NCBI GenBank assembly: GCA_045539625.1
Contig: JAZQFS010000064.1
Location: 4,891 to 68,890 of the forward strand
DNA length: 64,000 bases
DNA from: Eubacteriales bacterium
GTDB taxonomy: Bacteria > Bacillota > Clostridia > Oscillospirales > CAG-382
Reading direction: 5' to 3'
A program made the translations under genes and the position numbers. Of the stretch, positions 27,258 through 39,331 are shown one piece after another; position 1 is the stretch's first letter; every line of letters starts with the position of its first letter. Under the pieces are notes generated by a model. That model made no database searches. It saw only the letters and a list, made by a program, of their open reading frames with translations, and had not been told where the DNA came from.

Positions 27258-28214
27258 ATGACAAACAAGGAATGGTTTAAAAAAGCGGGCTTCGGAATGA
27301 TGCTTCACTGGGGGCTGTATTCTCTTCTCGGCGGTGAGTGGAAGGGACAGAGAATGGATTATATCGGAGAATGGGTAATGTCAAAATACCGTATTCCAAA
27401 TAAGGAATACGAAAAGCTTGCGGGTATATTCAATCCTATATATTTTGATGCCGAGGAATGGGTAAAAAGTGCAAAAAATGCAGGTATGGAATATATGGTT
27501 TTTACGTCCAAGCACCACGAAGGCTTTGCTATGTTTCACTCGAAGGTTGACAAGTATAATGTGGTAGATGCAACGCCCTTTAAGAGGGATGTTGTGTATG
27601 AGCTTGCCAATGCCTGTGCTCGTCACAATATGAAGTTTGGACTGTATTATTCACAGATACTTGACTGGCATGAGCAAAACGGCGGAGGCTACGAATCCCG
27701 TAAAGCCAATTTTGGTATGAGCTGGGATAACGACTGGGACTTTCCCGAAAAAAGCAAAAAGGATTATTTGCAGTGCTATGAGAAGAAAATAAAGCCTCAG
27801 GTTAAGGAAATTCTGACACAGTACGGCGACCTTTGTCTTATATGGTTCGACAACGGCTCGGTGGGGATCCCCGCACAGTGCTCAAAGGAGCTGCTGGATA
27901 TGGTTAAGCATTATCAGCCCGACTGTCTTGTAAATTCCAGAATAGGTAACGGAATGGGCGACTACCGTTCCTGCGGTGACAATGAGCTGCCCGATGCAAG
28001 TATGACAGATGAGCTTATTGAATCCCCCATCACCCTTAATAAAACCTGGGGATACAAGTCATTTGACAATGAATGGAAAAGTGCCGATAAAGTCAAAGAA
28101 ATTCTTGATAAATGCAAGTCTCACGGTGCAAATTTATTGCTTAACATAGGTCCTGACGGACTTGGACGGTTGCCTGCACCTGCAATTGATATTCTTAATT
28201 CGGTAAGACAGTAA
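27258..28214 (+). CDS. Alpha-L-fucosidase, GH29
   Basis: FGMMLHWGLYS, TSKHHEGF, IWFD, LLLNIGP. Confidence 0.9.
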   Translation: MTNKEWFKKAGFGMMLHWGLYSLLGGEWKGQRMDYIGEWVMSKYRIPNKEYEKLAGIFNPIYFDAEEWVKSAKNAGMEYMVFTSKHHEGFAMFHSKVDKYNVVDATPFKRDVVYELANACARHNMKFGLYYSQILDWHEQNGGGYESRKANFGMSWDNDWDFPEKSKKDYLQCYEKKIKPQVKEILTQYGDLCLIWFDNGSVGIPAQCSKELLDMVKHYQPDCLVNSRIGNGMGDYRSCGDNELPDASMTDELIESPITLNKTWGYKSFDNEWKSADKVKEILDKCKSHGANLLLNIGPDGLGRLPAPAIDILNSVRQ

Positions 28215-28438
28215 AAAAATGACCACTGACGGGTTTGTCAGTGGTCTGAAGGAGCATTCAAGTGCTCCTTTTTTTAGTCAAATATATCTTCTTTTTCTTT
28301 GTCAAAGGACAGAATACTTCCGTCCTCGGCAGATACTTCAATGTCGTACTCATAGCTGCCTGCTTTAAATTCGATGTCGTAGTAAAGTACTCCGTCATCT
28401 CTGTCAAGCTCGACTTTTACAAATTTTGCATCCTTTGC
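28189..28438. repeat. 250-bp inverted repeat, copy A
   Basis: Reverse complement of 35724..35973 with 4 mismatches by manual alignment. Confidence 0.95.
28274..28438 (-). pseudogene. 3' fragment of the PepSY gene
   Basis: Encodes AKDAKFVKVELDRDDG...KEDIFD*, matching the C-terminus of 35280..35888. No signal peptide or good RBS. Confidence 0.85.
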
Positions 28439-35279: not shown

Positions 35280-35888
35280 TTGAAAAGACGTTTTATCGCA
35301 TTGGCTGCAGGGCTGACAACTGTGTTCGGAATTACCGCAGGCGTCATTGCCGCAGACAAGATAAAAGAAGTTTCGGCGCAGATAAGGCAAGACTTCACCG
35401 TAAAAATTGACGGCGAAGAAAAAGTTTTTAAAAATGCAAGCGGTGAGGTTGTATATCCTCTTCTTCACGACGGCACCACCTATCTTCCCGTCCGTGCAAT
35501 CGGAGAGATTATGGGCAAAAAGGTATACTGGTATGAAGATGACAAGAGAATTGAATTAAAGGACGAAAAATCCACCGTCACCGATGCCGACGTTATTGTT
35601 ACAGGCGAAAGCGGCAGCTCAGATCAAAAAAACGTGGTGCAAAAGCCCGTATCGGCAGAGCAGACGCAAAGCATCACCAAGGACAAGGCAAAGGAGCTTG
35701 CTCTTAAAAAAGCAGGCGTTGCCGCAAAGGATGCAAAATTTGTAAAAGTCGAGCTTGACAGAGATGACGGAGTACTTTACTACGACATCGAGTTTGAAGC
35801 AGGCAGCTATGAGTACGACATTGAAGTATCTGCCGATGACGGAAGTATTCTGTCCTTTGACAAAGAAAAAGAAGATATATTTGACTAA
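35280..35888 (+). CDS. Secreted protein with copper-amine-oxidase-N-like (stalk) domain and C-terminal PepSY domain
   Basis: Signal peptide; GTTYLPVRAIGE; ITKDKAKELAL...YYDIEF..YEYDIEVSADDGSIL. Confidence 0.8.
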   Translation: MKRRFIALAAGLTTVFGITAGVIAADKIKEVSAQIRQDFTVKIDGEEKVFKNASGEVVYPLLHDGTTYLPVRAIGEIMGKKVYWYEDDKRIELKDEKSTVTDADVIVTGESGSSDQKNVVQKPVSAEQTQSITKDKAKELALKKAGVAAKDAKFVKVELDRDDGVLYYDIEFEAGSYEYDIEVSADDGSILSFDKEKEDIFD

Positions 35889-35973
35889 AAAAAGGAGCAC
35901 TTGAATGCTCCTTCAGACCACTGACAAGCCCGTCAGTGGTCATTTTTTTACTGTCTTACCGAATTAAGAATAT
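35724..35973. repeat. 250-bp inverted repeat, copy B
   Basis: Contains the PepSY 3' end, two hairpins and the reverse complement of the last 26 nt of the fucosidase gene. Confidence 0.95.
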
Positions 35974-36210
35974 TTCGCCATGCTTCTACAGAAGTAATTT
36001 CCCAAGGGTACTGTGGAAATATTTATATATAAATTCCAAATTCAATAATACTTATCTGTACTTAAAATTGCGTAACAGCTTTATCAAGGCGAGCCTTATT
36101 TCAATTTTTAGTCAAAATTTGAAATGAGAACACAAAATTTTAGCTGTTATTTTCATTTAATCGCTTAAGTGATGATAAGTACACGAAACATTCTCATCAT
36201 AAAAACGCAT

Positions 36211-36242
36211 AAAAACGGAGGTTGAGCAACCTCAACCTCCGT
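36211..36242 (-). terminator. Intrinsic terminator downstream of the orphan rbr 3' end
   Basis: ACGGAGGTTGAG-GTTG-CTCAACCTCCGT followed by TTTT on the minus strand. Confidence 0.75.
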
Positions 36243-36270
36243 ATCAAATCGTATCTATTTGTATCTAATC

Positions 36271-36324
36271 TTACTTAAAATAGCGGTTTAAGAGTCCTTC
36301 AAACGCTTTGCCGTGGCGAGCTTC
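36271..36324 (-). pseudogene. Orphan recoded copy of the rubrerythrin 3' end (att-like)
   Basis: Encodes EARHGKAFEGLLNRYFK* versus [17 protein letters not shown] at 37118..37171. Confidence 0.85.
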
Positions 36325-37117
36325 ACAATGGGACTTGTTTACAGAACCCTTGATTTTACTGGGTTCCTGTAATTTTTTCTCATTTTGCCCACCAACTGCC
36401 CACCATTTTGTTTAGCCCACCATTTTGAAAAATAATCACAAAATATGTTAATGTTTTGTCTTCTAATTACTATGGGAATTATCAATCTTTTTTGTTGAAA
36501 TAAAACTTAATTTGTGACTTGTTGCCTATGGTCATTTTTTCATATGTAATTTTAATATCATTTCCTTCCCATTCAATATGAGTTAATGGGTATTTCCCTA
36601 TTGTTTTGTTTTCATTGGTAGTTTGTTTATAATTATCATCAAAATACTCAACCATTTCATCTATATTTTCGGTAGAGCAAGTCGATACATCATAAATAAC
36701 TCTTGAAAGAGAATCATCATCAAAATAGAACACAGAAATAACATCTTCATTTTCAAAGAATTCAACATTTTGTCTTTTATATCCTACCATATTGTTATCT
36801 TTATCTTCTCCAAAAAACTCATCATTATAACATAACTTTTCAATATCTTCGTATGACATATCAAATTTGAAATCAAGTACATTATTATCACTACCACAAG
36901 ATGACATCATAAAAATAGATAATACAACACATAGCAAACATAATATTTTTTTCATAATACAATTAACTCCTAACATTAATTTTAATATACTGTTTCATAA
37001 ATTATACTACATATTTGTCAAAAAATCAATGGTTTAACAAAAATACACATAAAAGAAACAAAAGAAATAAAAAACCCACCAACCTAAAATGATTGGTGGT
37101 TGGTGGGTTGGGTTATC
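36325..37117. mobile_element. Putative integrase-less islet inserted at the rbr 3' end
   Basis: Bounded by the two rbr 3' ends. AT-rich. CCCACCA repeats at both ends. One cargo gene. Confidence 0.6.
36482..36955 (-). CDS. Hypothetical lipoprotein, AT-rich
   Basis: MKKILCLLCVVLSIFMMSSC lipobox. A sampled 60-nt line has 28% GC. Confidence 0.75.
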   Translation of the reverse strand: MKKILCLLCVVLSIFMMSSCGSDNNVLDFKFDMSYEDIEKLCYNDEFFGEDKDNNMVGYKRQNVEFFENEDVISVFYFDDDSLSRVIYDVSTCSTENIDEMVEYFDDNYKQTTNENKTIGKYPLTHIEWEGNDIKITYEKMTIGNKSQIKFYFNKKD

Positions 37118-37660
37118 TTATTTAAAATATCTTTTAAGCAGACCTTCAAAGCCTTTGCCATGTCTTGCTTCGTCTCTTGCCATTTCATGAACTGTATCAT
37201 GAATAGCATCAAGACCAAGTTCCTTAGCACGCTTAGCAAGGTCGAACTTGCCTGCAGTTGCACCGTTTTCAGCGTCAACTCTCATTTCAAGATTCTTCTT
37301 TGTGGAATCAGTTACAACTTCGCCGAGAAGCTCTGCAAACTTAGCTGCGTGTTCTGCTTCTTCGTAAGCTGCCTTTTCCCAGTAAAGTCCGATTTCGGGA
37401 TAGCCTTCTCTGTGAGCAACTCTTGCCATTGCAAGGTACATACCAACTTCTGTACATTCGCCTTCAAAATTAGCTCTCAGATCCATGAGAATGTCTTCTC
37501 TAACGCCCTGAGCTACGCCTACAACGTGCTCTGCTGCCCATGTCTTTTCGCCTGCCTGCTCGTTAAACTTGCTTGCAGGAACTCCGCACTGAGGGCACTT
37601 TTCGGGTGCTGCATCGCCTTCGTGAACATAACCGCATACTGAACATACAAACTTTTTCAT
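37118..37660 (-). CDS. rbr: Reverse rubrerythrin (N-terminal rubredoxin domain)
   Basis: CSVC...CPQC, then a diiron four-helix domain (EEAEH, DEARH). Confidence 0.9.
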
Positions 37661-37735
37661 AATCCATAACTCCTTTGATTATATAATTTATTTTTTGGTA
37701 GTTTATGTAATCCAAAAGTGATGTGCAATTCACTT

Positions 37736-37783
37736 TTGTATTGATTACAAAGTTATTATAACAACAACTTTCGATTTTGTCAA
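37736..37783 (-). promoter_or_regulatory. rbr promoter with operator
   Basis: TTGACA-17 bp-TATAAT. 37736..37767 is identical to 5285..5316. Confidence 0.85.
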
Positions 37784-37841
37784 TAGGTTTTTGAAAAAAA
37801 GTTTATTTTTTTTGAAAAAAGTTTTTTGCCCGGCCTTTTTG

Positions 37842-38515: not shown

Positions 38516-39331
38516 TTATAAGCTGCACAGATGGTCAACTGCTTTGTAAGTAAGATTTATGTAATCGCAAATCATATGCTCGGGGATACTGCCGTGGGCA
38601 TACTCAATGCTCATAACATTGTTGTAGCCTGTCTCCTTGAATGCGCCCATAGTTTGCTTCCAATCTATGTCGCCTGTCAGGGGCATCTGGTGGGAGTCGT
38701 TTCCTGCATTGTCGTGAACGTGGGTACACTCAATAAGAGAGCCGAATTTTACAATCCACTGGTGTGCCGTTTTGCGGAATGATACGTTGGCGTGACCGAA
38801 ATCCCAGCAGCAAACGGCGCTTTTACTGTTATAGGAATTTATCAAATCAAGCAGCTCTTCGGGCTTTGAAGTAAATCTGGTTTTAACGGGGTGGTCGTTG
38901 AATACCGTTTCAAATGCAAGTTTAAAGCCTGACTTTTCTGCAAAAGTTACATCGTTCAGAAAATAGTTGTGATTATATTCAAGTGCCGCTTCGGGGGAGT
39001 ACTGCATATTGTCAAAATCAAACTCGTCGCCGTGAACGACAGCGTGCTCTGCACCCATAAAAGCGGTAGCCTCAAGTACTCTGTCAACATATAGCCTGTG
39101 GTTTTCTCCGCAGCTTCCGTAACGGTTGAAGGGGATGTGAGTCTGATTAACCTTTAATCCGTGTTCGGATAAGATTTTGCAGGAGTTTTTCATAATATCT
39201 TGCCAATCGTCCTTTGCAACGGGCGGTGTGTAGTCAACGCAGGTAAAGCCTGCTTTTGATATAAGCTCTGCCGCCTTTGAAAACTCTGTGTTTCTGAAAT
39301 AGTTGATGTTTATGCCGTATTCCATATACAT
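38516..39331 (-). CDS. Sugar phosphate isomerase/epimerase (TIM barrel)
   Basis: LAFET, WDFGH, THVHDN...DSH, MSIE. Confidence 0.85.
   Translation of the reverse strand: MYMEYGININYFRNTEFSKAAELISKAGFTCVDYTPPVAKDDWQDIMKNSCKILSEHGLKVNQTHIPFNRYGSCGENHRLYVDRVLEATAFMGAEHAVVHGDEFDFDNMQYSPEAALEYNHNYFLNDVTFAEKSGFKLAFETVFNDHPVKTRFTSKPEELLDLINSYNSKSAVCCWDFGHANVSFRKTAHQWIVKFGSLIECTHVHDNAGNDSHQMPLTGDIDWKQTMGAFKETGYNNVMSIEYAHGSIPEHMICDYINLTYKAVDHLCSL

Follow-up and report, generated by a model that had tools for sequence, protein, structure and literature searches.

A probable miniature integrase-less integrative cassette at the 3' end of a rubrerythrin gene in a Eubacteriales genome

In the stretch of 64,000 nt analysed here from a Eubacteriales genome (the window), a rubrerythrin gene, rbr, is followed on the same strand by a second, orphan copy of its own last 54 nt, and the two copies enclose an islet at 36325-37117. 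We consider it very probable that this islet is a miniature integrative cassette devoid of an integrase, comparable to a CIME, and that it belongs to a group of tyrosine-integrase elements that insert at the 3' end of rbr. An initial annotation, made from the window's letters, had proposed rbr as the attB of a non-autonomous element, and the integrase-bearing elements that we observed at the rbr 3' end in other genomes support this proposal.

The features of the locus are collected in Table 1. In a profile search, the rbr product gave NCBIfam matches to rubrerythrin and rubredoxin-like families below cutoff, and its homolog on metagenome contig L105 is annotated with the Pfam domains RUBY_RBDX and Rubrerythrin. 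The genome (134 contigs, 2.72 Mb, 97% complete) has 43.0% GC against 27.4% over the 793 bp of the islet, which agrees with the AT-rich segment and single lipoprotein gene reported by the initial annotation. The positions and similarity that it had given for the orphan and for the matching end of rbr were borne out as well: the two copies are alike at 40 of 54 nucleotides and 15 of 17 amino acids, and eight of the 10 codons that differ do so synonymously (the other two give G to A and K to N). As it had also noted, the orphan has no start codon and a terminator lies behind it; the frame stays open for 29 codons upstream with no listed start, and the terminator has a 12-bp stem. For the duplicate, described there as "recoded", "of different origin" is the better term, since each copy resembles the genuine rbr end of another lineage.

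Table 1. Features of the rbr locus, with positions counted from the first letter of the window.
Feature	Positions	Strand	Remarks
rbr, 180-aa reverse-type rubrerythrin, target gene	37118-37660	-	ORF; N-terminal rubredoxin-like CxxC...CxxC
attL-side copy: last 17 codons and stop of working rbr	37118-37171	-	foreign to the lineage by 54-nt bin identity
Left (rbr-proximal) end of islet	37066-37117	-	begins after TAAGAT; terminator hairpin CCACCAATCATTTTAGGTTGGTGG and T-run
Promoter-like TTGATT-17-TATAAT ahead of cargo gene	37001-37029	-	10/12 consensus match only
Cargo ORF, probable secreted lipoprotein, 157 aa	36482-36955	-	signal peptide, Cys20
Right end of islet, integrase-proximal "P arm"	36325-36432	-	three GGTGGGC repeats, hairpin 36342-36369, CAAGTCCCATTGT touching the orphan
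Orphan rbr 3' end, attR-side copy	36271-36324	-	translates as EARHGKAFEGLLNRYFK followed by a stop
Older 3' UTR: three 10-bp repeats, then terminator 36215-36242	36176-36270	-	module found behind intact rbr in G006

The short repeats at the two ends of the islet were also re-examined. The triple GCCCACCA (GCCCACC on the plus strand and GGTGGGC on the minus strand) is present as described at 36387, 36398 and 36415, spanning 36387-36422. Five of the ten matches to CCCACCA in the 64-kb window fall within 36388-37107. Those that had been noticed on both strands at 37075-37107 do exist, but they are primarily the two arms of the hairpin at 37076-37099, which a terminator scan identified as the present terminator of rbr. 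No Rfam family reached its gathering score within 35800-37800. The neighborhood carries other rearrangements: an inverted duplication of about 250 bp (28189-28438 and 35724-35973, 98% identical) brackets a block of ferritin, rubredoxin, FprA and PepSY genes, and because this block has the opposite orientation relative to rbr in the congeneric genome G013, it has been inverted right beside the rbr insertion site. A gene for a 271-aa sugar-phosphate isomerase/epimerase-like protein (38516-39331), situated between a yigZ-like gene and rplA, is missing from that place in G013.

To trace where the two 3' ends come from, we compared rbr with its orthologs in 54-nt bins. Against G013 and G001, nine bins of the gene body are 83-98% identical and the last drops to 70-72%, and this last bin is exactly the stretch that is duplicated. 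The end of the working gene thus looks foreign to the lineage, as would be expected if an element had supplied it. The first 32 nt of the orphan match the G013 rbr end at 29 positions, and its last 22 nt, together with the three 10-bp repeats and the terminator, are 91% identical to the sequence behind the intact rbr of G006 (G006:C4:243-392 against 36176-36325 in the window), where this sequence forms the authentic end of a 200-aa rbr. The boundary at 36176/7 was seen again in metagenome contigs. Other pairs show a similar discordance: L105 and G006 are 80-87% identical over the rbr body and 94% in the last bin, and for G006 and G005 the corresponding values are 76-94% and 61%. Judged from these bins, rbr 3' ends evolve independently of the gene bodies, and the end of the gene is evidently reshuffled at this site. 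The window genome contains no further reverse-type rubrerythrin that might have donated the orphan (its remaining rubrerythrins are at most 30% identical), and with a single such gene plus the orphan, a chance origin of the orphan is excluded.

The gene as a whole also varies within the genus. Beside the yigZ-like gene, rbr is of a short, 180-aa type in G000, G013 and G001 and of a long, 194-aa type in G005; the long-type rbr of G006 lies elsewhere, next to an Rrf2 regulator, and its ORF measures 200 aa from an upstream TTG, or 195 aa from the MKKY start. In some lineages, another rbr seems to have taken the place of the entire gene.

The initial annotation had suggested searching other genomes for second in-frame rbr ends and adjacent tyrosine integrases, and integrase-bearing elements were found at the rbr 3' end in L040, L047, G001, L111-L119 and L136-L139. 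Among 80 rbr loci of other species, six (L032, L040, L047, L054, L071 and L076) have a second rbr end downstream on the same strand, and two further loci, L024 and L091, have genuine tandem full-length paralogs. A tyrosine recombinase of 405-424 aa with Phage_integrase and Phage_int_SAM_3 domains is encoded next to the orphan, at a distance of about 100-160 nt, in both L040 (7.2 kb) and L047 (9.5 kb). L032 retains only an N-terminal fragment of the integrase, and both it and L037 are among the loci with truncated integrases or lost ends. Within the genus of the window, G001 carries a resolvase and the C-terminus of an integrase downstream of rbr, up to the end of the contig. Using the L047 integrase as the query, we obtained nine matches in eight of 401 genomes of the order; in eight of the nine, the integrase 5' end was no more than about 300 nt from an orphan rbr end, and one locus had three orphans in tandem.

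The simplest complete arrangement is that of L117, a minimal element of about 2.1 kb that reads rbr, left arm, integrase, right arm, orphan. Both of its arms contain GTGGGA repeats, with five more in the arm away from the integrase-proximal one. All four homologs of this integrase recovered from metagenome assemblies showed the same arrangement, two of them (L136 and L138) with a Mob_Pre relaxase gene. Overall, an integrase stands beside the orphan, 130-300 nt away, in 14 of the 16 loci with a readable flank, a count that takes in L040, L047 and L037 (the far end of L037 is lost). The integrases associated with rbr form at least three lineages that are mutually 35-38% identical and score under every curated Xer and integron-integrase threshold. 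Full-size relatives of the islet have 2-10 kb between rbr and the orphan, with the integrase gene adjoining the latter, and carry cargo that in some cases includes resolvase, primase-like or Mob_Pre relaxase genes. Because they also come with a terminator and a replacement for the rbr 3' end, rbr remains intact. The placement of the orphan beside an integrase in 14 of 16 loci indicates that a sizeable group of integrative elements, some of them mobilizable, attaches at the rbr 3' end. Two or three orphan ends in tandem, about 220 nt apart and each with a terminator, occur in L040 (17751-18026) and L112 (237-721); these are empty "scars" of earlier insertions.

These loci bear on a simpler explanation of the orphan, namely that it is the leftover of a mostly deleted tandem rbr paralog, with unrelated AT-rich DNA inserted between. 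Full-length tandem copies do exist (L024 and L091), and the orphan with its UTR matches the long-type G006 end at 91%. However, the truncation point is not arbitrary: in more than 20 independent loci the boundary falls near D/EARHG, directly against the conserved end of a mobile arm, and in 14 of 16 evaluable loci an integrase is adjacent. Moreover, the foreign part is the last 54 nt of the working rbr itself, and the cargo varies from locus to locus with the arm constant. We therefore rejected a paralog remnant, which we regard as extremely improbable. The initial annotation had named two findings that would speak against its proposal, such a remnant, or a lack of variable cargo between the copies together with a lack of any integrase-bearing element at rbr. 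Neither held: the cargo differs among relatives, and integrase-bearing elements occupy the rbr 3' end.

The part of the islet that is most conserved is its right end, of about 110 nt, which comprises two to three GGTGGGC repeats, a hairpin (CAGAACCC, a 12-nt loop, GGGTTCTG), the CAAGTCCCATTGT segment, and then the GAAGC of the orphan; the junction itself reads CCCATTGT directly followed by GAAGC. A class-wide search with this right end detected it in six further Clostridia families at 76-91% identity. Islets of 650-950 nt, flanked by rbr and an orphan, end with it in L140, L143 and L146, and each of the sister islets has different cargo (membrane proteins or small lipoproteins, and in one case a rubredoxin). 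Cassettes that have the exact right end had no integrase gene within 1.5 kb. The same end aligns with the integrase-proximal arm of L117, L136, L138 and L139, in which GGTGGGnAG....GTGGG is found at an equal distance. The identical placement in seven families, together with the alignment to the arms of integrase-bearing elements, supports reading the GGTGGGC repeats as putative arm-type integrase sites and strengthens the arm-type interpretation given in the initial annotation. Exact-pattern scans of JGI metagenome contigs for the right arm returned no match, and a DNA search with it in the 401 genomes of the order returned chance-level matches only.

Several peculiarities of the right arm were recorded along the way. 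The 12-nt loop of the hairpin at 36342-36369 occurs in either orientation among otherwise near-identical copies, one orientation being that of the window and L142-L145 and the other that of L105 islets A and B (see below), L140 and L147. In L142 (G676:C100, about 1490-1640), an rpe-like ORF (ribulose-phosphate epimerase) takes the place of the orphan, and the right arm is fused to its body at GTGAGGCAAGTGATGG; this sequence is similar to the beginning of the rbr site, and the fusion is possibly a secondary-site insertion. L147 (G738:C7, about 68233-68338) has a second copy of the right arm 6 kb from its rbr array and in the opposite orientation, followed by a degenerate orphan, EACHGKELAGLFKRFIK and a stop, and the cargo of this second copy is homologous to that of the rbr cassette in the same genome.

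Close relatives of the lipoprotein were confined to a handful of metagenome contigs, some of which carry the islet itself. L105, L106 and L107 share a 752-nt block that is 98.5% identical to the window islet, and L110 provides a third context with a 718-nt block at 98.6%. The host gene in L105/L106/L107 is a different rbr, of the long type (194 aa) and beside a Fur gene, and outside the islet the L105 contig is unrelated to the window genome. L105 is a tandem array in the order rbr, islet A (the copy of the window islet), orphan, islet B (with a 219-aa ORF), orphan; the sequence common to islets A and B is limited to the last ~95 nt. The block common to the copies of islet A extends from TATTTTAAATAAGAT, in the region of the stop codon, to GAAGC, with which the orphan begins. 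Three metagenome runs contained a relative whose flanks are about 97-98% identical; its depth was 6-8 on both flanks and 0 over 36328-37032, which suggests that strains without the islet exist, though the contigs fall short of the junction, and absence from contigs is weak evidence. Neither an excision product nor an empty site was observed for the organism of the window.

Near-identical islets in unrelated genomes indicate a propagating unit and not a local relic, and this weighs on the idea that a full-size element decayed in place and left the islet behind as a single, dead deletion product. Such remnants are found: G005, of the same genus, shows the pattern independently, with rbr and its own terminator, then AT-rich DNA in which another small lipoprotein gene runs on the opposite strand, and an orphan with a terminator, and this is a decayed remnant that lacks the arm repeats; the truncated integrases or lost ends of L032 and L037 and the lack of a helper integrase in the window genome would also fit. 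In contrast, copies of the integrase-less unit with 98.5% identity lie in two further contexts that are unrelated, and in a tandem array, and six other families have sister cassettes (650-950 nt) that share its right end. We judge a dead remnant to be quite unlikely. Instead, on the evidence of the 98.5% copies in unrelated genomes, the tandem arrays and the sister cassettes that have the same right end and other cargo, integrase-less cassettes appear to propagate as a family.

Under the cassette model that we favor, the islet would have retained two element ends and one cargo gene, the left end with its terminator and the right end, of about 110 nt, with GGTGGGC arm-type repeats. The islet would have entered through site-specific recombination near codon E164 of rbr, replacing the last 54 nt of the gene and displacing the earlier end, which would now be the orphan with its old UTR and terminator. 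An integrase of the rbr group was not found in the window genome (the best match is 27% identical), so the cassette would be incapable of moving by itself there and would be stranded until a helper arrives. The integrase would come from an incoming integrase-bearing element, acting in trans or in cis, and may be of the L117 type to judge from the similarity of the arms. In 164 genomes of the window family, a search for L117-type integrases returned only G157, at 39%, and this match is an L047-type integrase locus already among those from the search of the order.

The position of the crossover presents a paradox. With a conservative recombinase that has one crossover point, the element would be expected to keep either its left or its right 54-mer when it moves. 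Instead, the 54-mer before the left end differs among all three copies of islet A, and so does the one after the right end; the differences are mostly synonymous, and each 54-mer is like the genuine rbr end of another lineage. A single fixed crossover at the start, the middle or the end of the 54-nt copy is in each case contradicted by at least one of the three copies, and because both flanking 54-mers differ, a simple fixed-core integrase model is contradicted. One of three options is required: two crossover positions, a cassette that is the passenger of helpers with differently cutting integrases (for which the three integrase lineages, only 35-38% identical, would provide), or an additional homologous exchange between arrays.

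In an alternative reading, homologous recombination or gene conversion would spread the cassette without any integrase, with rbr and the orphan or right end as homology arms and the cargo swapped between the arrays of different strains. The failure of any single crossover to suit all three copies would fit this reading, as would the independent shuffling of rbr 3' ends relative to the bodies; the 98.5% block stops within the right arm of the window, at about 36378, and an arm of ~110 nt that is common to different cassettes could support recombination. Set against this, the left boundary, TATTTTAAATAAGAT directly followed by AACCC, is alike to within a few bases in the window, L105 and L110, contexts that have only 15 nt in common there. 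The rbr bodies, at 76-87% identity, are too diverged for efficient RecA exchange, and the identity never reaches into rbr; in addition, a dedicated group of integrases exists at exactly this site. We therefore think it unlikely that homologous exchange explains the spread, and retain the integrative cassette as the preferred reading.

A broader possibility, which we put forward tentatively, is that rbr in gut Clostridia anchors an integron-like platform. Single-gene cassettes with a site of ~110 nt, drawn from a pool of small lipoproteins, membrane proteins and a rubredoxin, might be captured, stacked and exchanged by trans-acting lambda-type integrases encoded on separate mobilizable elements. 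Either edge of the 54-nt copy would be usable, with the rbr 3' end continually reshuffled as a result.

The cargo of the window islet gives few hints of function. The 157-aa protein had no match in Pfam, PHROG or NCBIfam, and its family is small (11 representative clusters). Although its AF2 model has a pLDDT of 89.5, a fold search of the PDB gave nothing significant (TM at most 0.36; DcrB, PsbP and Eag-like folds at E ~0.01). The cargo family also travels in an unrelated element: in L108 (7236-9393), a homolog of 67% identity is flanked on one side by a large serine recombinase and on the other by a truncated Mn-catalase gene, of which the C-terminal 121 aa alone are present. This serine-recombinase element, unrelated to those at rbr, appears to split another oxidative-stress gene.

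Taken together, these loci mark the rbr 3' end as a hot spot for integration in Clostridia of the gut and rumen, where at least three integrase lineages use it. The signature ...RHG..(F/L)EGLL.RYF, with a stop behind it and in frame downstream of rbr, flags mobile DNA in fragmentary metagenome-assembled genomes. The separate history of the last 54 nt, which is thereby explained, matters for rbr phylogeny and for recombination scans. Very small units lacking an integrase can spread between families and would be a vehicle for small envelope proteins, and the crossover paradox poses a concrete question about how cassettes are exchanged. A literature search for rubrerythrin as an integration target, in combination with integrase, attB or tyrosine recombinase, found no paper naming it as such.

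Among known systems, the closest are the CIMEs, integrase-less decay derivatives of ICEs and IMEs that keep attL and attR, for example at the fda 3' end in Streptococcus thermophilus (PMC5704250); integrative elements of this kind enter the 3' end of a gene with a substitute end, and their accretion at one site leads to tandem structures (PMC5704250). Like a CIME, the window islet is bounded by attL- and attR-type copies, 54 nt each, of the 3' end of a protein-coding gene, has no genes for integration or transfer (its only ORF of at least 60 aa is the lipoprotein gene), and has a right arm that aligns with the arms of integrase-bearing elements (L117, L136, L138 and L139). The rbr cassettes are also found in tandem arrays with other elements of that site, and the target is kept intact by the substitute end. 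They differ from CIMEs in their target, in their size of 0.65-0.95 kb with one or two genes, in forming a family that combines one conserved ~110-nt end with exchangeable cargo and spans at least seven families of Clostridia, and in being 98.5% identical in unrelated genomes. The islet differs from an IME in having no tyrosine integrase of its own, which its relatives have beside the att site, and no relaxase or oriT; Mob_Pre is found in the full-size elements L136 and L138.

Two further systems share the restriction to one gene. The dusA-specific integrases are a gene-specific integrase family (PMC4482086). In both cases a single protein-coding gene is the dedicated target of tyrosine integrases, and its interrupted end is restored by the islands; however, dusA elements enter the 5' end and rbr elements the 3' end, and the integrases at rbr belong to at least three lineages of 35-38% identity. 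The ssrA islands of Dehalococcoides are stacked at one gene end, and 16 of 31 have an integration module (PMC3146451). Stacking at a conserved gene end, with many units lacking an integrase, is common to ssrA and rbr, and the cargo and integration modules at ssrA have discordant histories, but the ssrA target is a tmRNA gene with islands of ~12 kb, whereas the rbr target is a protein gene with minimal single-gene cassettes.

Finally, the resemblance to integrons is one of outline: single-gene units that end in a conserved site, arrays at a fixed site and an integrase encoded elsewhere. Membership among integron cassettes was rejected, as three rbr-site integrases score 21-30 bits against TIGR02249, far under its cutoff of 265. 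Compared with attC, the right end does have a hairpin with an 8-bp stem (36342-36369), while the site overall consists of arm-type direct repeats and a copy of the target end; unlike integron cassettes, the rbr cassettes carry their own promoter-like and terminator sequences. The mechanism class at rbr is already established, and what appears to be previously undescribed is an element group that inserts specifically in the last 54 bases of rbr in gut Clostridia.
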